A stretch of DNA of 63,972 bases, the filler included, from Reclinomonas americana ATCC 50394 (Eukaryota), in assembly GCA_048213135.1 (NCBI GenBank). It is 22 parts of 22 records of this genome, joined end to end, with 100 filler letters (N's around TTAATTAATTAA, not from the genome) between each part and the next. Parts side by side here need not be neighbours in the genome. Positions count along the whole stretch, not along the records: positions 17,714 to 20,617 come from AFZH01021723.1; positions 20,718 to 22,143 come from AFZH01021724.1; 20 more parts are not named here. One strand, given 5' to 3'. The notes under the pieces were generated by a model. That model was not told the DNA's origin, searched no databases, and was given only the letters and a program-made list of their open reading frames with translations. Both the position numbers and the translations under genes were made by a program. Below are positions 11,370-22,356 of this stretch, piece after piece. Each line of letters begins with the position of its first letter. Positions within the stretch are counted from its first letter, which is position 1.

Positions 11370-14300
11370 GTTGACGGCGGAGGCGGACGATGACACGGTA
11401 AACACGGCGCGCGGTGTGCAGCTGGCGCTCACGCACAAGCAGCTGAGCCAGCGAGCTCTGTTGCGCTTGTCGGCCACCTCGTCGTCGCCCAACTTCCTGC
11501 AGCATGCGCGGAGTGCGTCGCAGCGCAGTCTCGACAGTCTGCCGGGTCGGTCGGCGCCGCCTGCGGTGGTGGCGTTGAGCGTGTCCAGTCCGCTGCAGCG
11601 CAAGGACTCGGGCTTTGCCAGTTGCGTACTGCGGTGTCCGACTCGTGTCTCCCTGCCTGCTGTGCACTCATTGCATGTCGGGCGTGCACGCACACAGGTG
11701 GGAGTCGGCCCACGCGCATCACGGTGGACGAGGCACAGCTCTCGACGGGACAGCCGACGCCATTCACCGCGCGTGTGCACGGAGACGGAGCGCACTTTAC
11801 GGTCAGTCTTTTTGCTGCCGGCAATTCCACCCTGCGTCTTGATCATGTGACCTCACCCACCAATGCAGATGGATGTGTTGATGACGGAACCGGCGGTGCC
11901 GGGTGTCATCAAGGAGGTGCTGTCGACCACCACGTTTGGTTTCGATCGGCGATTCTTGGTGAACACTGTCCGCCGCAACGTGTGGTCCAGTGCGGTCGAC
12001 CACTTTACCGTTGCGTCCCACGTCGCTGCCATTGTTTTTGTTTCGACTTGTGCGCCACCTTACCTGCATGAAAACAGCGACCAAGCGAGGCTCCGATGCA
12101 CGAGCGCCTCGACGAGTGGCACCGCCTGGAGCTCGGCCCGTTCATGGAGTACGATTTCGAGTTCCGCACTCGCCGAAGCCTGTGGAGCAATCGAGCCAAC
12201 CAGTCGTATGGTCCACGATGGTGGAGCGCGGTGTGGACCACGCTCGTCGTGTTCTTCAACTTGATCGACTTTCTGTTGTTCCACATTCCATTCAACATCC
12301 TCCGCTTCGGGCGTGCACTCGTGCGCACCTTTGCTTCGCGTCACCCCGGCGAGCCGCGTGAGGGATTGCATCGTTGCGTGTGCACGACAATGCTCTCTCT
12401 TTCCCTCCCTTTGGTCGCTCACAAGTACAACAGGCAAAGCACGGCGATTGTGGCGAGAGGAAGGGCGGCGAAAGTGTGCGCTGGCCGACGGCACTCCGAA
12501 CCACCCGCACTACCTGCCATCACCAAATTTTTCCATTTCTTGTTGCGTTGCAGTGGCGTCGTGTGTTGTTGGTTGATCTGCATGCGCTCGACTCACCACA
12601 CTCGACGGGGCGGTAGCGGTGCGCGATCTCGATGCTGACGAGGCCGAGGTGCAGTTGGCGGTACATCGTGTGCGTGAGATCCTTCTCATGCGCCTGCTGC
12701 AAGTGGCCGTGGGGCCGTTCGTGTCGGCCGGTTACGGACTCTTTCGCTTCCTGTACGTGCACGTACGCCAGCAATGGCTGCGTGGTCACTTGTCCGAAAT
12801 CAATGTGGCGCCGTATGTGCAACGCCATGTGGCGCTGTTCCATGTTGCGCAACATGCTCCCTCTACTCCTGCGTGTGTGTTGTTGCCGCACTGACACAGA
12901 AGCACATGCAGAACATGATCTCCGAGGTCAAGTACTGGCGCGAAATGACACGCTCGCGCCTGGACTACGTGGTGCCGACGCACCAGCAGCTGCTCTACCA
13001 AGACATTTCGGATCTGTTCTTCGAGGAGGACTTTTTGTTCAAGCGTCGTTCGTTCAGCGACGGCCAGGGACTCGGTTGCGTGTGGGACGACGGCGTTGAG
13101 AAGTTCGACGACATTGTTCAGCTGCTGCGCCCGAGTAATGCACTTCCGCGTCCGGGTGATCCGGCTGCTGAGAGTGCACCTGAGGGACGCGAGCAGCGCA
13201 TCAAGGAGTGCTGGGCCTGGGCGGCTCACATGCCGGCTCGGACGGCGCCACTCAAGACATTCCGCGAACGGTCCTCTGACGTGTGGTGGAAACCAGGTGC
13301 GTATGAATATGCATGCTGCACTCTAGAGTGACGCTTACTCACGTTGAGTGTGCAGGCTTTTTCACGGTGATCTCCAACGTGTTCCCGATGCTGAATTTTG
13401 GCTCGGTGTTCGTTTTCCTGCAAGTCTGGCTCGTGCACTACGATCGCCTCGGTCCCATCGAGGCTGCCTATGCGTACGCCGCGTTGCGCGTCATCTTTTT
13501 CGGACTTGGGGTAAGTTCTGGTCTTGCCATTCTGCGTGCACGCCGAGAATTCGCTATAACGATACACTCTGCAGTACTTGGCCGACGCGTGGACGTGGAC
13601 GCCGCACAATCCAGTAACACCCGACCAGTCGGCGTCGCTGAAAATGTCGCGACGGCAGTGGCACCAGGTGGGCATGCGTGTCCTGGTGGTGACCATGTCG
13701 GTGCTTGGCACGCTGGCCATGGACACGGTGTTGCTGCTGCGCGGCGAGAAGCAGCTGTGGGATACGACACTGGATACGAACTCGCCACGGCAGGTTTGTC
13801 GCTACGTGGTCATCGTGTGTGGCTCCTCCTCCTCCTTCTCCTCCTCACGCGTGACCGCGCAGATTGCTGTGCTGGTCATCACCCGCTGCATTGTGATGCT
13901 GCTGACCATGACCGTGACAGGAAGCATTGCGTTTATCTTTTCGCTCTCGCTTCTGTCGTTGATCAAGGGCTGGTGGATCGGCTTCTCCAGTAACCGGACG
14001 TGGAACCAGGTGCGGCCACTGACCATGAAGCATGCAAACCAGAGTTCGTCTATTTGTCTCACGCGCTTCACCACAGATGGCCAACATTGTGGCCCCCAAG
14101 AAATCCGCCATCCGGAAGCCGATCAAGCCAGTGGAGCCGTCGGGTGGATGGACTGCTGTGGGTGCGGATTGTCACTTCTTGTTTCTTTGCTCTATTGCTC
14201 GCGACTGACTCCTCGCATGTAGGCCTCAAGTCGCCCACCAATGCCGCTGCTATTCGTATCAGTGCCGCCCTGCCGTCGTCTCGACGTACGGCGAGCTTGG

Positions 14301-17300
14301 CCAGCGACGCGGACGATGTAAACAAACTGCATGTGGACCGCGAGCTGGCCGGCGTACCGAACAAGGAGTGGAACAAGCGCGAGCGTCTACCGGCCAACCT
14401 GTCGATGAAGGATTGGGATGTGGAGTCGGTGCCGAGTTCGTTGGCGCCAACCGTCACCATTGCTGGCGGCGATCGGCTGACGGCCATGAGCTACGGCGAT
14501 CACGTACTCACCATCAGCACCAAGATCGAGGTCAAGTTTGCACGCATCTTCATTCCCCTGGAGCACGACCCGATGCGCATTCGCGTGGCGTGGGCGCGCT
14601 ATCTCAACCTGATCTTCAACGACTTTTTCAAGCGCTCGTTGCTGCTGGAGCAAGAGTACAACATGTACAAGCGTGCTCTCGCCATCCGACACACCTCGCG
14701 CACCGACTTTTTGGCCGGCACCTGCAACCTGCGACATTTCGTGTCGCTGCTTCGCCGGCGTCCGCCAAAGAACCAGGAGGCACGACGTCGCTTGTCGACC
14801 AATTTTGACGGCCTCCTCAGCAACAGCATCCCCACTGTCGATCCGGTCACCTGCATGCCGTCGTTCTGCATCATGATTCCGAGTGGTGCGTGGGTTGTGC
14901 ACTCAAATCTTCTGTATTGATTGACTGACTCACTTTTGTGCAAGTGCAGGTGACGAGCCGTTCTTGTACACCATGGATCAACTGCTGGAGGTCACCACGA
15001 ATCGCGCACCGATTTTGCTTCACATGATAGAGCGGTACCCGAATGACTGGAAGAACTTTGCCGATCGAGTGCTGTCGGACCCCACCTTTGCCGACGAGGA
15101 TGGCGACGCCATTGACATTATTTTTACGCGCGGCGCACAACGGTCCAACGTGCTCGAGCTGATGGAGCAAGGCGACTATCCACTTGTGTACCACTCGTTC
15201 CGCAGCTTCAGCGTGCCTCTTCAGCGCAAGATTCGCGAGTGGGCCTGCGGACGGTGCGTGTGTAGATGGGGATGATGATGATGCTCGTCTGCGGTACTTT
15301 AAATGACTCCGTTTTCACCACAGCTTCCAACCACTGTTTCGGTGTCTGGAGGGCGTGGCCGGCCAGCGCGATGCCCTTATCTTCCTGCACCGGCTGCAGA
15401 ACCCGCGAGACCCCATGAGCCGAGCCATCGAGGTCGTCGACCAGAAGCTGCAAGTGGTGTTTGGCTACCAGTCGTACGGCAAGGTACCTGGAGCCTCGCT
15501 GAGAATCGCCTTCTTCTCTCACTTGCTCACTCGTTGCCGATTACAGCTCAAGCAAGCTGCTGACGGCGATGCATCTGAACGCGGAGGCCTCCTGAGCGAC
15601 ATTAACACGACGCTGGCCAAACTACCGTTCATCGATCTGGTGACCGTGGAGGCCACCACGTTTGAGGGCCAGACCGTGTACGATTCGGTGTGTTACAAGT
15701 TCGATCAGCGACCCGACGGTACCGTGTTGCGTGTCGAAAAGGCTCGCGTGCGAGTTGCGTGCCATGAGAAGTGCAGTCTCGTCGAACACCAGGCTCCACA
15801 CACGCTCACTTTCCCCACATTTTGCAGTTGCCCGGCAATCCGTTCTTGTGTAGCGGCAAGGCAGAGAATCAGCATCAGATGTTTGTGCACGTCCGCACTG
15901 AAATCGTACAGGCTGTGGACTGCAACCAGGACTCGTACTTTGAAGAAATGCTCAAGGTGATTGATCTCCGTACATGTCGCCAGTTCTTTTGATGCGCTGA
16001 CGCGGCTGATTTTGTGGCAGGCCCCCTGCGCGTTGCGTGAGTTTGCTTTGAATCCGGAGGTGCGAGTCGTCGGATTCTCGGAGACCGTAATCACCGAGAG
16101 ATGGAACTTTGTCGGTCGGCTGGCGGCCTTGGCCGAGCGAGCGTTCAACACCACCGTGCAACGCGGTCTCGGTATCATTGGTCTTCGCGCCCACTACGGC
16201 CACCCCGACTTCATCGATGCACGATTCGCTCGCTCCTGTGGTGGTCTCTCGAACAACGCCTATGTCAGTGAGGACATTTTCCTCGGTCTCAACTTGTGGA
16301 TTCACGGCTACGAGTCGACGCATGTCGACTACCTGCAGTACGGCAAGGCTCGTGACACAAGCATGCTCACCACGGCCAAATTCGAGTCGAAAGTGGCTGG
16401 TGGCTCTGCGCAGGCTGTTGCGTTGAGATTTTTTGATTTTGAGCACACAAGCGCATCCTCACGTGCTGTGCCATCACGCAGTGCATGTCGCGTGAGGTGC
16501 ATCGCTTGTACCGATCGCGTCTGTTTGGTCCGCTGCAGCGGTACTGCTTGTATCACTCCAACATGGGCTTCTACTTGAACCACTACATTGTGCGCAACGT
16601 TGTCATTTTCTGGGTCCTCACCCACATTTGCATCAACATGGCCAATCACGTTGCGTCTCGAGCGTACCGTACTCTTCCTCTCTTCACTGCACTCGCATCT
16701 CACCAATAACCTCCCCGCGTCGCAGTGGATCGAATCCAAGTTCTTTGTGGCCACCAGCAACGATCCCTGGTTCCTGGCTGTTGGCATGTTCCTCTCCCTG
16801 CCCGCCATTTTCACCATGTGGATTGATCGCGGTTTACTGGGCGGCACTTGGTACTTTATCAAATACGTCGTGCCCATGGCTGGCTATCAATTATTCCACG
16901 TCAGTACCAAGGCCTACGGGTGGGGCATCGGCATCTCCTCGGACGCCAAGTTGCGCCTTCAGAGGGGGGATGCACACGTTTTTTTATGTGGCGGGTGACG
17001 GCACGGTAGTAGATGTTTGCAATCTCTCTCCCGCACGCATGCACATACAGAGCACTTTGTCTGTGTCTGTCACTCTCTTCTCTGTCCCCACCGGTGACGT
17101 GCTTCCAATCACACACGCTCCCTGTCCAGCTCTTTGTATCCGCCTAACTGGACCGGCATCACTGACGAACCTGCGTCTCCTGACACGGTGCGTCTGCTGG
17201 ATCACGACAGATACATTCAGACGGGGCGTACGTTTGGTCTCGAGCACACGCGGTTCCGCGACATTTTGCTGCAATTCAACGACTCGCACTTCAAGTACTG

Positions 17301-17613
17301 CTTCAAGCTGCTCGTGCTGCTGCAAGTCAATGCCATTGCACTTGGTACGGGTGTCGCTGCATCTACAAGCATGCGTGACTGCCTGTGCCTGACCACGCAC
17401 GCGCACATGTCGCAGGCGACCAGAGCATCATGTGGAGTGGCTGGCTCATGCTGGGCGTGACGCTGATTGCCCTCAATTTCTTCAATCCCAGCACGCTGCC
17501 AATCCGCACGCCAGCCAAGTTCACCACGGTGCGTTATTGTTGCATGTGTGTATGCGATTTGAGTGTGTCTCGCTCACTGCTCACTGAATTGTGCTTCACA
17601 GAAATTCATGCAA
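11370..17613 (+). CDS. 1,3-beta-glucan synthase / callose synthase (GT48, FKS/GSL family), multi-exon, open at both contig ends
   Basis: Motifs YQDISDLF and KTFRERS (FKS1 domain 1), PKNQEARRRL, MPSFCIMIP, YPNDWKNF, LPGNP..GKAENQ, DCNQDSYFEE, HYGHPDF (about 16192-16212), SEDIF (16267-16281), GKARD, KVAGG, SREVHRL, AKYIQTGR and FNPS, plus multiple TM helices. Confidence 0.95.
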
Positions 17614-17713
17614 NNNNNNNNNNNNNNNNNNNNNNNNNNNNNNNNNNNNNNNNNNNNTTAATTAATTAANNNNNNNNNNNNNNNNNNNNNNNNNNNNNNN
17701 NNNNNNNNNNNNN

Positions 17714-20617
17714 GTGAGCAGAATCACATTGAGAAGGCGGTGACGGAGAACGAGGGACTGGTGATGGAGTTGGTGAAGGACATTAATGATGCTTTCAACG
17801 GCTTCTGGTTCTTCAATCCAGAGGAGCGACCAGAGGCCACCTCGGCGGTGGTGCGTTGTGGCGCGATCTTACATTCTCTGCTTGAGTGAGTTTTGGAGGA
17901 CTTATCTTTGTGATTGTTGTTGGCTGCAGACGGCGCGCATCTGGGACATTGAGGACGACGAGGCCGACGATGATGAGGTGATGGCATACGACGATTACGT
18001 GCAGCTGGCGGTGAATGTCACCAAGAAAATCAAGGTGTGCGGTGGTCGCAGTTTTTGTGGAGTTGATTATTCTTCTGAATACGCTGACACATACACGCAG
18101 AAATACCAATACCGCTTGCGCTCGTCGCACGTGTCGTTCCCGGCACTCGTGCGCCGCATCCTCAACATCGAGTGGCCACAAGAACGACTCGACTTTTTGC
18201 TCATGTTTGGCAGCTTTGGTGGTGCCGTCAGCAAGGCCATTGACCAGTGCAACGACGACACTCTGTCTGGCCAGGAGCGTCGCCATCGTGCTGTCTTGCG
18301 CGTGGTCTGGGCCCTCAACACGTACGTCGAAAACACGTACGACCTCATGCGACGGACTGTACTGTCGCTGCACATGCGCGAGTTCCGCGCGAATCCGCTG
18401 TGCGTTGACCTGGTACAGGCGGCGTTCTTGAGCATTCAAGAAGGTCTCTTTGGTTTCCATTGCCATGACTGTTGATAGGCAGACTACTCACTGGCTGTGA
18501 TATCTCGCTTGCGCAGGCTACCAAATTTTGCTCGGCGAAGGCGTGCGACAATTTGCGGAAGAGGTGGCGCCGCAGTTCGCAGCTGCGGCCGTACTCGCCA
18601 ACGACATGGCGTCGATGGATCCAGACACGATGCTGGCGCGCGCACAGGAGATCAAGTCGTTGTGGAAGACGGTGCAGAAACTGTCGGCTCACCTCGCCGT
18701 CACCTCGCAAGAAGTACTGCAGCTGTCGCGAGCGTTCGAGGTATCCATTGCACCGTTATTTATTTTGTTGCCTGCACCCACCGACTCACTTGTTTATCGA
18801 CGCTCGCAGGAGGGTGAGGCGCCGCACTACTTTTTCGATTCGCGCATGTTGCAGATGAACGGTGTACTGGACGACAGCCCAGCCATTCAAAGCAAGTTGG
18901 AGCTGGTGACGAGCACACTCATGCAACTGCAGCAGATGGAAGCGCGACTGGAGAAGGATTGCATTCGATTGGTGCGCATGAAGCAAGGTCTCGACCCCGA
19001 CGACGACAGTACGATCATGCCTCTCGATCTGCCGACCATGGCCGAGAGCGTGCACTCAGTGTCCAGCTATCGCGGCGGTCTCGGCAGCTCAATTGCTGGC
19101 ACCCCACACGCTGCCCTGGAGATGGTCGCCACTCCGCGCACCGTGATTGAGGAGGCCGGCAAGCAGATGAAGATCACTGTCGTTGGTGCGTACCCGCGTC
19201 ACTCCTTGTTAGTGCCCATGTCCATGACTCACTCTCTTCTTTTGTGAATGTGTGCGTGTGCAGCACCACCACCACTGGCTCCATCGAGCGCCGCCGGATC
19301 GTCGACGTACAACGAGGACGAGATGCGCAAGGCTTCGAATCGCCGTCAGAGTCAGGACCTCGGCTCCGACATTATGACGGTGGACTCGGAGATTGTCGAG
19401 TACGGCGACCTGGAGAAGTCGTCGTCGCAGAGCTCCATCACCCACACACATCGAGTGGTCACGAAACGCATCACGCGCTCCGTGTCGCCCACTGGCAAGC
19501 CCGTGCGACGAAGTGCAAGTGGCAAGGCAGCGGACAAGACCAAGTCTGCCAATACCGCCGCCACTGCCGCAGCCGACGGCGCGCCAGCAGCGGCCTCGTT
19601 TGACCTCGGCGGCTCCACACCACTGCCACCGCCAATCCTCACGCCGGTCACGGCGCGGGCGATCTCGCGACGTGGTGGCGGTGGTGGTGGTTCCATGCTG
19701 ACCACTGTGTCGATGCCTCCGGACGATGCCGACAACACTCCGCGCGACTCGTTGGTGTATCTGCAGGCCGGCGTGGTGAACTCGTACCCGTCGTCGCCGT
19801 CGTCGCAGGCGTCGGAGCTTGCCGTCGAACTGGCCACCGATCAGAGTGTTACACCGAACCGCTCGCCCAACACCACACCGATCCGCATGGACGACGGTAC
19901 AGCTGTTGACGACAGCGAGCAGTCGATTGATGTGCTCGACGTGGACGAGATTCGCCGCGACTCGCGACTTGTGCGTGAGGTGTCGGCGCGCATCGAGATC
20001 CCGTTCATCATGCGCCATCCAACCTATCGCTTCTCGGTGGACGAGCACGTGGCGTTGGCGTACAAGCGGCAGGAGGGCGTCATTCGGTACATTGGACCCA
20101 CGGATCTCGGTCCCGGCACGTGGCTCGGCGTCGAGCTCAAGCTGCCAGAGGGCAACAGCGACGGCATGCTCAACGGTACTCGCTACTTCCGATGCCGGCA
20201 CAACTACGGCGTGTTTGTCAGGCCGGAGAATGTGCTGCGTTGCAAGGTACTGTGGGCAATGATGTCCTTTTTGTGTTTTCTTCTTTCCTCCACTGAATTC
20301 TTGTGACACAGATCTACACCGTGGAGGCACAAATGGGTGGCGATCAGATGCAAGAAACAGTGGACATGCGTCGCCGTGCATTGTCGCCGAGTGCGCGGAC
20401 GGAGGAGTTGACGGCGCGCGAGAAAGTTGCACTTGCGCAGCACGAGTCGCGCACGCGAGGAATGGCTGCCTCGCCAACAGACATGGTGATGAATGCGGCG
20501 TCGCCGGATGTGGCTCCACGCCTGCAACGTCGACAGTCGCTCCTCGGCAACGACAGCGAGTCCAGCAGCAACAGCAGCGGGCGAGGGCGTCCGGTGTGTG
20601 TTGACAAATTCATTCAC
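17714..20617 (+). CDS. Multi-exon helical/coiled-coil and low-complexity segment with a CAP-Gly domain; probable continuation of the glucan synthase gene
   Basis: CAP-Gly at about 20031-20235: GVIRYIGPTDLGPGTWLGVELKLPEGNSDGMLNGTRYFRCRHNYGVFVRPENV. The reading frame is open at the contig start and enters an intron at the contig end. Confidence 0.85.
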
Positions 20618-20717
20618 NNNNNNNNNNNNNNNNNNNNNNNNNNNNNNNNNNNNNNNNNNNNTTAATTAATTAANNNNNNNNNNNNNNNNNNNNNNNNNNN
20701 NNNNNNNNNNNNNNNNN

Positions 20718-21944
20718 GCTCATGTAGCTGTGCAGTCGTCGTTCCTCGCTCACCGCAACCTGTGTGTACGTGCAGCGTCGCAACAGTCGGAGCAGTTTTG
20801 ACGGCAACAGTGCGCCGGCGGGAGGCGCCACACGTCCCGGCGCTGTCAATCCCGGTCGCCGACTGTCGCACTCGCGTCGACCGTCGATCTCCGACACGAC
20901 ACCGCCGGTCGAGCAGTTGTCGGTGATTCCGCCGACTCCGCCCGTGGGTGCGCTGCTGCCGCCACTCCTGCCGCTGGCCGACTCTCCAGTGCCACCCGGA
21001 GGCGCGTCGCCGCCGGTGCGAGCGTTGGCGTCGGTCGACCGACCGCGCAGTTTCAGCTCGGTTCGTATGAGCTTCCAGGCGACGCGGCGGCGCGGTATGC
21101 CCGTCAGTGCCACCGACTCGAGCGAAGCCGCAGACATGGAAATAGTCGCGGCATCAGCTGCGGCAGCACCTGTAGCATCTCCGGCGCCCGCAAAGGGCTC
21201 ACCGGGAACGCTACGTCGCAATCACTCGCCCGACATTGCGTCGAAATTCGGCCAGTTGCCGGCGCCGACCTTCCTTGGACCCGACGGCCTTTTGCGACAC
21301 AAGAACACACTCAGCCAGCCTTCGCTGCACGGAACAGGCACATTGTTGCGCTCGTCGGGCAACAGCGAAGCGACGCTGTCGGTGACCTCGCTGTCGTCGA
21401 CATCGCTGGTGCATGAACTTGGCGAGTTGCCGCCAGTGCCCTCTGATCACGTCTCGTCGGCGTCGTCGCTGGCCTCTGCGGTGGCCGGCGGAAGTGTGCC
21501 GATTGGCAGTGGCTCCGAGGGGCACGTGACGCATCTGTGGATGCATCGCTTCCGACCCAATGGCGTCGACGGCCCACTGGCCGACTTTATTGCCGATCGG
21601 CTGGCCACGGAGCTCTCGCGTGGCCGCTACCCACTGCACGCGCCTAATGACGACGAGCTGCGCTACATGGCAGAGAGCGCCAGTGCCAATGGGTTTTCGC
21701 GATCCGAGTCACTCATTCCCGGCTCCGGCATCATCGTGTCGGTGTGCCTGGTCGACGGTGGACGCGTCTCCAAGGACGGCATTCAGCGCATTGCATTCTC
21801 GGTCAATGGTGAGTCCCGTGTAGCTCCCCTCCCTCTGCGATTGCATGATTACTCACTTGCACGCGACATGCAGGCCCCGATGCAGACATCACGCGCTTTG
21901 TGGCTGGGCGGCCAGCAGATCGCTTCCAGGCGCTGGGAGACTAA
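20718..21944 (+). CDS. Ser/Pro-rich tail and small terminal globular region; 3' end of a gene (probably the CAP-Gly gene)
   Basis: Long ORF of similar low-complexity composition. The last intron (GTGAGT...ATGCAG) gives GPDADITRFVAGRPADRFQALGD-stop at 21942-21944, followed by AATAAA at 21949. Confidence 0.6.
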
Positions 21945-22356
21945 AGATAATAAATTATGGTGTGTGTATGTTGCATGCAAGAGAGGGTCGATGTAGCCGT
22001 GCAGGCCGCAGTGATACTTGTAAGTCGGCCGAAACTGAGCAACCCCACTTTCAGACAAGACCGTTTTGTTTGATTGTGCGAGAGGAGCGGAGGCTTGATC
22101 TGTTTCGTGTCATGTCCGTGTTGTCTCAAGCTCAGTGTGTCCCNNNNNNNNNNNNNNNNNNNNNNNNNNNNNNNNNNNNNNNNNNNNTTAATTAATTAAN
22201 NNNNNNNNNNNNNNNNNNNNNNNNNNNNNNNNNNNNNNNNNNNAACACTGACTCACTGTGTCCTTTGCTTTGCGTGCGTGTGTCTCTGCAGTGACTGCTC
22301 CTTCTTTTCACTTGCCACCTCGCTCGTTCTTGCACATAACGATTTTTCACCACAAG

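Follow-up and report, generated by a model that had tools for sequence, protein, structure and literature searches.

A glucan synthase gene and a CAP-Gly protein gene on successive contigs of Reclinomonas americana, most likely separate genes with a boundary hidden by the assembly

Results

The whole stretch of DNA analysed here (the window; 63,972 nucleotides from Reclinomonas americana) carries a truncated FKS-type glucan synthase gene which is followed, on the same strand and across an artificial junction, by a truncated gene for a large protein with a CAP-Gly domain. On a modest balance of probability these are two separate genes, most likely with their boundary hidden by the assembly. The preliminary description had read the CAP-Gly domain as part of the C-terminal tail of the synthase; the domain calls held, but the single polypeptide was not confirmed and rests on contig adjacency across the spacer. 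The analysis established the presence of a divergent FKS-like synthase in a poorly sampled eukaryote with many introns, and, on the next contig in the record, of a large orphan protein whose CAP-Gly domain resembles that of KIF13B but has an unusual binding loop, GNSDG.

Contig order and artificial spacers

The window consists of 22 contigs, each of 1,010–6,244 bases, with 21 artificial spacers between them. Each spacer comprises 100 bases (44 N, TTAATTAATTAA and 44 N) and includes an engineered six-frame stop, a pattern typical of concatenation. The spacer between contigs 4 and 5 (17614–17713) hides the real distance and content, and a second one separates contigs 5 and 6 (20618–20717).

Contigs 4, 5 and 6 might not be genomic neighbours, in which case their order would be that of the file or the product of a scaffolding error, and the genes would be positionally unrelated. 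The engineered stops in the spacers are consistent with this reading, as is the overlap score of 0 at ends 4|5 and at ends 5|6. However, contigs 2 and 3 share an overlap of about 36 nt at their ends, with a few indels and at a score of 24 which was reached by 1.1% of 441 non-adjacent contig pairs. Because of this overlap, the contig order probably reflects real genomic adjacency, with some of the gaps being tiny. Exactly 100 bases is the usual scaffold-gap convention for gaps of unknown size, and the spacers fit it. Open Ser-rich frames of similar composition, in compatible phases, also face each other across 5|6. We regard positional independence of the three contigs as very improbable.

A further point for positional independence, and a practical warning, came from the spacer between contigs 12 and 13. 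Here, contig 13 ends within a glutathione-reductase-like gene, at about residue 221–235 of about 450–490, and a papain-like protease domain starts at the facing end of contig 12 on the same strand. Because two unrelated truncated genes abut head to tail on one strand at this junction, a single spacer in the window can conceal a gene boundary together with about 0.7 kb or more of coding DNA. The TTAATTAATTAA spacers should be read as contig joins.

Short identities between contig termini were also recorded. The word AAATTCAT occurs at the ends of both contig 4 and contig 5, and GTGAGCAGAA at the starts of both contig 5 and contig 10; for a shared 10-mer at the termini, about 0.09 sharing pairs are expected by hand arithmetic. 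We considered whether the gaps hold a repeat or an introner-like element and set this aside; the 8-mers shared among contig termini are at chance level (2.0 sharing pairs on average in random controls). An 11-nt identity, TTCTTCAATCC, encodes FFNP both in the last synthase exon and in the first contig 5 exon. It was treated as chance, the flanking protein being dissimilar; hand arithmetic puts its chance at about 0.005 for a single junction and at about 0.1 for all 21.

The glucan synthase gene

The conserved part of an FKS/GT48-type 1,3-beta-glucan synthase was located at 14765–17613 on the forward strand of contig 4 (11370–17613), as identified by PF02364, FKS1 and tblastn from related synthases. 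The gene is intron-rich, with short introns, and is cut off by the end of the contig; the N-terminal part is encoded upstream of this stretch, on contig 4 and perhaps also on contig 3. Matches to PF02364 were found in the ORFs 13994–14920, 15961–16575 and 17098–17460. The match in ORF 15961–16575 reached 96.3 bits (E 1.9e-27), above the curated cut-off of 37.2 bits, and was accompanied by weaker, collinear matches in three other ORFs. The matched profile positions were 3–40, 336–459, 459–512 and 612–655 of 819. The synthase core further aligned with residues 1140–1275 of yeast FKS1 (7xe4_F) at an E value of 5.8e-20. A variant genetic code was considered and rejected; the in-frame TGA stops that interrupt several frames sit inside short GT..AG introns (about 64–80 nt, and one of about 135 nt), which makes reassignment unnecessary.

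The last complete exon of the synthase (17416–17528, forward strand) encodes a transmembrane helix and an FFNPS motif (17478–17492); its end is in phase 0. The relatives have NPGSLPS, FNHGSLSS and FNRGSFSS where the motif aligns. The contig ends at 17613, 121 nt past the motif, in agreement with the earlier observation that the synthase is cut just after FNPS, although the gap named there is an artificial spacer. Between motif and contig end lie a probable 73-nt intron, GTGCGT...CACAG (17529–17601, forward strand), and 12 nt of a probable next exon with a neutral coding score, which runs into the spacer (17602–17613, forward strand). The length of the intron fits that of eight other short introns read by eye in the sequence, about 64–80 nt with one longer at about 135 nt (counts approximate). 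Because this intron is followed by a probable exon, the synthase coding sequence probably carries on into the spacer.

The missing C-terminal region of the synthase

The C-terminal region of the synthase was compared with that of 20 related synthase loci, 17 of which were usable for the length beyond the conserved core, the other three being cut by introns or contig ends. The related synthases extend 401–1,075 residues past the core match in these 17 loci. Because the R. americana synthase reaches about 255 residues past the core at the contig end, in an exon model built by eye, at least about 145 residues are unaccounted for. In the relatives, this missing part has no fewer than two additional transmembrane helices, which form a hairpin, as seen in five lineages (L001–L004, L005, L006/L007, L008 and the fungal one). 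The closest relatives, L001–L004, show 41–44% identity and have long uninterrupted ORFs; the ORF of L001 ends 17 nt short of its contig end, about 107 residues past the last transmembrane helix. The L006/L007 lineage possesses a soluble C-terminal tail of about 740 residues, which is helical and Ser/Pro-ended.

None of this region was recovered from the following contigs. PF02364 was absent from the five contig 5/6 ORFs even at E ≤ 10. The contig 5/6 product contained no hydrophobic segment, the maximum 19-residue Kyte-Doolittle means being 1.07 and 1.45, against a threshold of 1.6 that recovers the helices of the relatives. A profile of the relatives' C-terminal regions matched 17098–17457 alone (E 1.7e-7), with the next best of 1,853 six-frame pieces at E 2.5; this test is of low power, as it missed the synthase's own FFNPS exon. 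By Pfam, hydropathy and profile, the missing C-terminal membrane region was thus not found in contigs 5 and 6 or elsewhere in the window. Its absence is an assembly truncation and is not evidence of a protein that lacks the region.

The CAP-Gly protein gene

The spliced open frame on contigs 5 and 6 encodes at least about 1,244 residues on the strand of the synthase. In its first visible exon (17716–17850, forward strand), the frame is already open and looks coding at the contig edge; 17721/17722 is a possible 3' splice site. The contig 5 frame thus starts open at base one, in line with the start-less frame described earlier, and the only early in-frame ATG lies at 17764. The 16 codons upstream of this ATG scored as coding (LLR 4.5); among 5,777 stop-free off-frame windows 0.9% reached this value, and among 1,319 intron or flank windows none did. 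Because the frame is coding-like to the first base of contig 5, the start of the CAP-Gly gene sits upstream of this contig.

The exons that follow (17930–19185, forward strand) encode a region of about 450 residues for which no search found sequence relatives. A single-sequence AlphaFold (AF2) model predicted this region to be helical at low confidence, with a mean pLDDT of 48.0 (37.5 for the C-terminal region of the protein), values too low to support fold searches. The helical character proposed earlier is therefore matched by the model, but only at that confidence. The introns of contig 5 were placed at 17851–17929, 18444–18516 and probably 18741–18809, with a possible in-frame one at 18035–18100. 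After the intron 19186–19263, an exon (19264–20246, forward strand) encodes a Ser/Pro/Arg-rich linker with several RRxS-type sites and then the CAP-Gly domain. The intron 20247–20311 is followed by a Ser-rich exon (20312–20617, forward strand), which is open to the end of contig 5 and has a possible 5' splice site at 20595. On contig 6, a probable last exon (20776–21996, forward strand) follows a 3' splice site at 20775 and encodes a Ser/Pro-rich region and an alpha/beta C-terminal region of about 170 residues. It closes with the terminal stop of the preliminary description, TAG at 21994–21996. Because strand, open frames, composition and compatible phases agree, we infer that contig 6 continues the contig 5 gene.

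The CAP-Gly domain (20058–20234) matched PF01302 with 77.8 bits (E 6.1e-22) over profile positions 7–65 of 65, where the curated cut-off is 26.5 bits. A total of 34 PDB CAP-Gly sequences matched at E ≤ 0.001, the best being KIF13B (2cow_A, 9.1e-19). The clear CAP-Gly assignment made earlier was thereby upheld, including its altered loop: the tail-binding loop at 20151–20165 reads GNSDG instead of GKNDG, and aligns to the GKNDG of KIF13B, a RIKEN mouse protein and CLIP4. According to a paper on T. brucei TBC-B (PMC3806363), GKNDG is "almost always" conserved, its Asn can hydrogen-bond EE[Y/F] tails, and a natural GKGDG variant still binds a tail, though in a shifted pose. As judged from the sequence, the GNSDG loop lowers confidence in canonical EEY/F binding, not in CAP-Gly membership.

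Apart from the CAP-Gly domain, no part of the protein yielded a relative in any sequence search. An exhaustive search with the region 17777–18472 alone against 1.84 billion representatives returned no matches, and a metagenome scan with the helical region of contig 5 returned no relatives. The Atlas gave nothing usable for 17777–18472, while the best score for the C-terminal region, 0.76, was below the lead threshold. Word-based homologue searches with 17777–18472, the synthase core and the CAP-Gly region were blank, which is weak evidence; they covered proteins of up to 2,000 residues, and a longer fused form falls outside this range. Pfam assigned no family to the C-terminal region of contig 6, and around the CAP-Gly domain it detected neither a motor nor a coiled-coil stalk family, nor a Ubl or LRR domain.

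Discussion

As separate genes, which is the reading we favour, contig 4 would represent a GT48/FKS-type beta-1,3-glucan synthase that lacks its last ∼150–250 codons owing to the contig end. Judging by the relatives, these codons would encode a loop on the cytosolic side, then a membrane hairpin of two helices and a short tail. The bulk of a separate, lineage-specific gene would lie on contigs 5 and 6, with one or more first exons likewise missing, and the stop, an intergenic stretch and the start would lie in the unsequenced interval. Because the contig 5 frame is coding-like to the edge, the 5' end of the CAP-Gly gene would share this interval with the 3' end of the synthase. Against two genes, neither a synthase stop nor a CAP-Gly gene start is visible, and about 1.1 kb or more would be needed in the interval.

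The two open edges could also belong to one fused gene, in which the synthase would cross the interval and end in a tail of 1,244 residues or more on the cytosolic side, with the CAP-Gly domain in it. We consider this a tentative reading of lower, though appreciable, probability. The interval would then hold the loop and the last membrane hairpin, in ∼100–150 codons with one to three short introns, and ∼0.4–0.6 kb would suffice, less than for two genes. The strands agree, and neither a stop in the synthase frame nor a start in that of contig 5 is seen. The exon phases are compatible as well, with phase 0 both at the exon end 17528 and at the exon start 17722, and a direct splice would be in phase. 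The probably genomic contig order favours the fusion too, and the tail of L006/L007 is a precedent within the clade for a long extension on the same kind of enzyme. In the relatives, Lys and Arg are abundant both in the loop that follows the FNP-type motif and in the tail beyond the last hairpin. Under the positive-inside rule, Lys/Arg-rich segments of membrane proteins are cytosolic; a fused tail would therefore be cytosolic, with the CAP-Gly domain facing the cytoskeleton. There, it could link microtubules or EB1-type proteins to the synthase in the plasma or vacuolar membrane, or to the vesicles that deliver the enzyme.

However, contig 5 holds none of the missing synthase region, and the proposed tail would be nearly twice the longest tail of the relatives. 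Pfam detected PF02364 in all eight related ORFs and CAP-Gly in none (0/8). A CAP-Gly or contig 5/6-like protein was found at none of the 20 related loci, and tblastn of four contig 5/6 protein pieces against these loci and flanks of up to 10 kb gave nothing at E ≤ 1. A likeness of the contig 5 start to the acidic post-helix tails of the relatives was rejected as not significant, given that 326–861 of 1,000 shuffles reached the local alignment scores. Spacer 12|13 produces the same appearance from two unrelated genes, and no CAP-Gly glucan synthase was described in the titles and abstract openings returned by a full-text search.

With the genes taken as separate, the CAP-Gly protein would be a soluble linker or adaptor under the control of phosphorylation. 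Its CAP-Gly groove would be expected to dock onto acidic-aromatic C-terminal tails of the alpha-tubulin or EB1 type; with the altered loop, it might dock onto another tail instead.

Comparison with known systems

The CAP-Gly domain clearly belongs with those of KIF13B (2cow) and other CAP-Gly proteins such as CLIP-170/Restin, CLIPR-59, TBCB and p150Glued, and its GxW.GVEL, DG, YF.C and G..VRP positions are conserved in the alignments to PDB sequences. As in KIF13B, it lies far from the N-terminus of a long protein; unlike KIF13B, its tail-binding loop is GNSDG and not GKNDG. The synthase shares its conserved catalytic core with fungal FKS1/GSC2 (GT48) and the non-fungal metagenome loci L001–L008. 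Its PF02364 match ends at about 655–700 of 819, as in six non-fungal ORFs (L001, L003 and L005–L008), and an FNP-type motif follows a transmembrane helix as in the relatives. Unlike in the fungal locus L009, FKS1_dom1 and FKS1_dom2 were not detected by Pfam in the R. americana gene, which is truncated; for the same reason, the last hairpin and tail of the relatives are not seen here.

Fungal and mollusc chitin synthases carry a myosin motor, an actin motor domain at the N-terminus, and plant cellulose synthase is guided along microtubules via a separate linker, CSI1/POM2. If the fusion is real, the same logic would apply, with a membrane glycosyltransferase tied to a cytoskeletal track. Unlike in the myosin-chitin synthases and CSI1, the CAP-Gly domain would sit on a GT48 enzyme, and the single polypeptide is a candidate only. 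A GT48 synthase, or its delivery vesicles, positioned by microtubules or EB1 through a CAP-Gly tail of more than 1,200 residues after the last hairpin is a conceivable, though less likely, counterpart of the myosin-chitin synthases. Should one protein be involved, it would be the first glucan synthase wired straight to microtubules, and would give simple access to the way in which protists pattern the deposition of wall or storage glucan.

Assembly structure of the window

The 63,972-base window contained 42 runs of 44 N, which resolved into 21 identical 100-base spacers, each consisting of 44 N, TTAATTAATTAA and 44 N; it therefore comprises 22 separate contigs. These measured 1,010-6,244 bases with a G+C content of 57%, and the spacer linker places stops in all six frames. 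The CAP-Gly finding covers contigs 5 and 6 (17714-20617 and 20718-22143), and the synthase was located on contig 4 (11370-17613).

The end of contig 2 (6946-6981) and the start of contig 3 (7082-7118) presented the same ∼36 nt apart from a few indels, with an overlap score of 24 that was equalled or beaten by 1.1% of 441 non-adjacent end pairs. The pattern resembles an overlap left unmerged, possibly owing to haplotype or read-error differences, and the contig order is therefore probably genomic, with some gaps being tiny. It is accordingly very improbable that contigs 4, 5 and 6 are not neighbours at all. An overlap was sought between the facing ends of contigs 4 and 5, and of 5 and 6, and none was found.

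The spacer between contigs 12 and 13 (37685-37784) provided an internal control, as two truncated, unrelated genes face it on the minus strand (37372-39030). A gene for a flavoenzyme resembling glutathione or trypanothione reductase (Pyr_redox_2 / Pyr_redox) is cut by the left boundary of contig 13 near residues 221-235, enzymes of the glutathione-reductase-like type being roughly 450-490 residues in full, and a papain-family cysteine protease domain starts on the same strand at the right edge of contig 12. This gap must conceal at least ∼0.7 kb of coding sequence and a gene boundary. The arrangement mimics exactly the picture from which the preliminary description had read the CAP-Gly domain as the C-terminal tail of the synthase, and demonstrates that distinct genes can meet at a junction of this kind, which counts against a fusion.

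Frames on the plus strand switched every few hundred bases, several with in-frame TGA. As read from the sequence, these TGAs fell inside short GT..AG introns, often GTGCGT...GCAG, with by-eye lengths of ∼64-80 nt and one of ∼135 nt; a variant genetic code is therefore unneeded. The source eukaryote is rich in introns. Of 103 ORFs with 150 or more residues on the other contigs, only 5 had a Pfam match at E ≤ 1e-4, indicating a lineage poorly represented in databases. One uninterrupted 698-residue ORF, open at its contig start (34042-36135, plus strand), showed an unusual pairing of a dioxygenase domain of the TauD/TfdA type (E 2.5e-16) with an AMP-binding (adenylating) enzyme domain, C-terminal part (E 9.9e-11), and spanned 2.1 kb without introns in this otherwise intron-rich genome.

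The glucan synthase and its truncation

The PF02364 profile (819 positions) matched ORFs in a collinear manner along contig 4, with 96.3 bits (E 1.9e-27) at positions 336-459 and weak matches at 3-40, 459-512 and 612-655. The synthase core aligned with residues 1140-1275 of the 1,876 in yeast FKS1. The last complete exon (∼17416-17528, plus strand) carries FFNPS (17478-17492) as well as a hydrophobic helix, and its phase-0 end at 17528 is followed by a 73-nt intron of typical form (17529-17601, plus strand). Contig 4 ends soon afterwards, in agreement with the earlier reading that the synthase is cut just after FNPS. The final 12 nt, whose coding score was neutral, probably open a further synthase exon, and the synthase coding sequence itself runs on into the spacer between contigs 4 and 5.

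Open plus-strand frames also flank the spacer between contigs 3 and 4 (10953-11269 and 11371-11850), and the one on contig 3 includes a transmembrane helix. The start of the synthase gene may therefore be on contig 3, although no homology points that way. Separately, 11 nt encoding FFNP were common to the last synthase exon (17478-17488) and the first contig 5 exon (17809-17819), both ∼40-50 nt upstream of a GTGCGT splice donor. This was put down to chance, being at about chance level over 21 junctions and flanked by dissimilar protein.

The CAP-Gly gene

The spliced model of contig 5 was open for 838 codons, with plus-strand introns at 17851-17929, 18444-18516, 18741-18809, 19186-19263 and 20247-20311, and contig 6 contributed 406 codons before a TAG stop at 21994-21996. 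The CAP-Gly domain is genuine, as shown by a PF01302 match at 20058-20234 (77.8 bits, E 6.1e-22) and by 34 matching PDB CAP-Gly sequences at E ≤ 0.001, led by KIF13B (2cow_A, 9.1e-19). Alignments to KIF13B and others of these set GNSDG opposite GKNDG, the substitution originally noticed. According to PMC3806363, conservation of GKNDG is nearly universal, the Asn of this motif can form hydrogen bonds with EE[Y/F] tails, and in a natural GKGDG variant a tail is still bound, although its pose is shifted; for the GNSDG loop, tail binding of the canonical kind is therefore plausible, not assured.

An in-frame ATG was present at 17764. The 16 codons ahead of it, extending back to the contig's first base, were coding-like (LLR 4.5 vs an in-frame mean of 3.6). 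Among stop-free windows, 0.9% of 5,777 off-frame or antisense ones reached this value, compared with none of 1,319 from introns or flanks. The gene therefore starts upstream of contig 5, which bears out the missing start of the preliminary description.

Outside the CAP-Gly domain, no Pfam family was found in the contig 5/6 protein, nor was any hydrophobic segment found in it. The predicted helical piece at 17777-18472 had no relatives among 1.84 billion representatives, Atlas searches with this piece and with the C-terminal region gave no usable neighbour, and single-sequence structure models were of low confidence (pLDDT 48.0 and 37.5). The linkers around the domain (19270-19990 and 20330-21400, plus strand) carried basic-Ser motifs (RRxS type) in repeated copies, which would point to control by basophilic kinases, a feature shared by many microtubule-associated proteins.

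Comparison with related synthases

Scanning metagenomes with the synthase core identified 20 loci, the nearest of which (L001-L004) shared 41-44% identity and lay in long uninterrupted ORFs. In 17 of the 20, the ORF continued for 401-1,075 residues beyond the core match, the other three being cut short. As the synthase reaches ∼255 residues past the core at the contig end, by an exon model drawn by eye and not computed, at least ∼145 residues are missing here. In five related lineages, the FNP-type motif (NPGSLPS, FNHGSLSS, FNRGSFSS, FCPQP or FNPHQF) was followed by a Lys/Arg-rich loop, at least two further transmembrane helices and a tail of ∼107 residues in L001, ∼60 in L005 and ∼741 in L006/L007 (L006:301-4026, L007:1041-4766). 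The L006/L007 tail, after the last transmembrane hairpin, was soluble and helical with a Ser/Pro-rich end, and had no Pfam family. This shows that long cytosolic extensions can be gained within the synthase clade, a precedent for a fusion, although the CAP-Gly tail would far exceed any seen in relatives.

PF02364 was detected in all eight related ORFs scanned with Pfam and CAP-Gly in none; the fused architecture was seen in none of the relatives examined. The contig 5/6 protein, searched by tblastn as four pieces against all 20 loci and their flanks, gave nothing at E ≤ 1, and related synthase ORFs, among the matches listed (6 of 13 ORFs), matched the window significantly only on contig 4. A C-terminal profile of eight relatives matched only 17098-17457 among 1,853 six-frame pieces, with low power, missing the synthase's own FFNPS exon. 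A likeness of the contig 5 start to the relatives' acidic tails was not significant and was discarded.

One gene or two

We lean towards separate neighbouring genes. A true synthase and CAP-Gly fusion in one gene is a lesser, yet serious, possibility: the frames share a strand, neither a synthase stop nor a CAP-Gly start is visible, the splice phases are compatible, and the gap needed is smaller (∼0.4-0.6 kb vs at least 1.1 kb for two genes). The tail would also be cytosolic by the positive-inside rule. Against this, the hairpin missing from the synthase is absent from contig 5. The original observation was largely right, while two adjacent genes are somewhat more likely than a CAP-Gly domain forming the synthase's tail.

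A full-text literature search for 'CAP-Gly' and 'glucan synthase' returned, in its titles and opening abstract lines, no fused protein, but yeast Bik1/Rho1 trafficking and unrelated topics. For coupling between a synthase and the cytoskeleton, the systems for comparison are the myosin-chitin synthases and CSI1/POM2.
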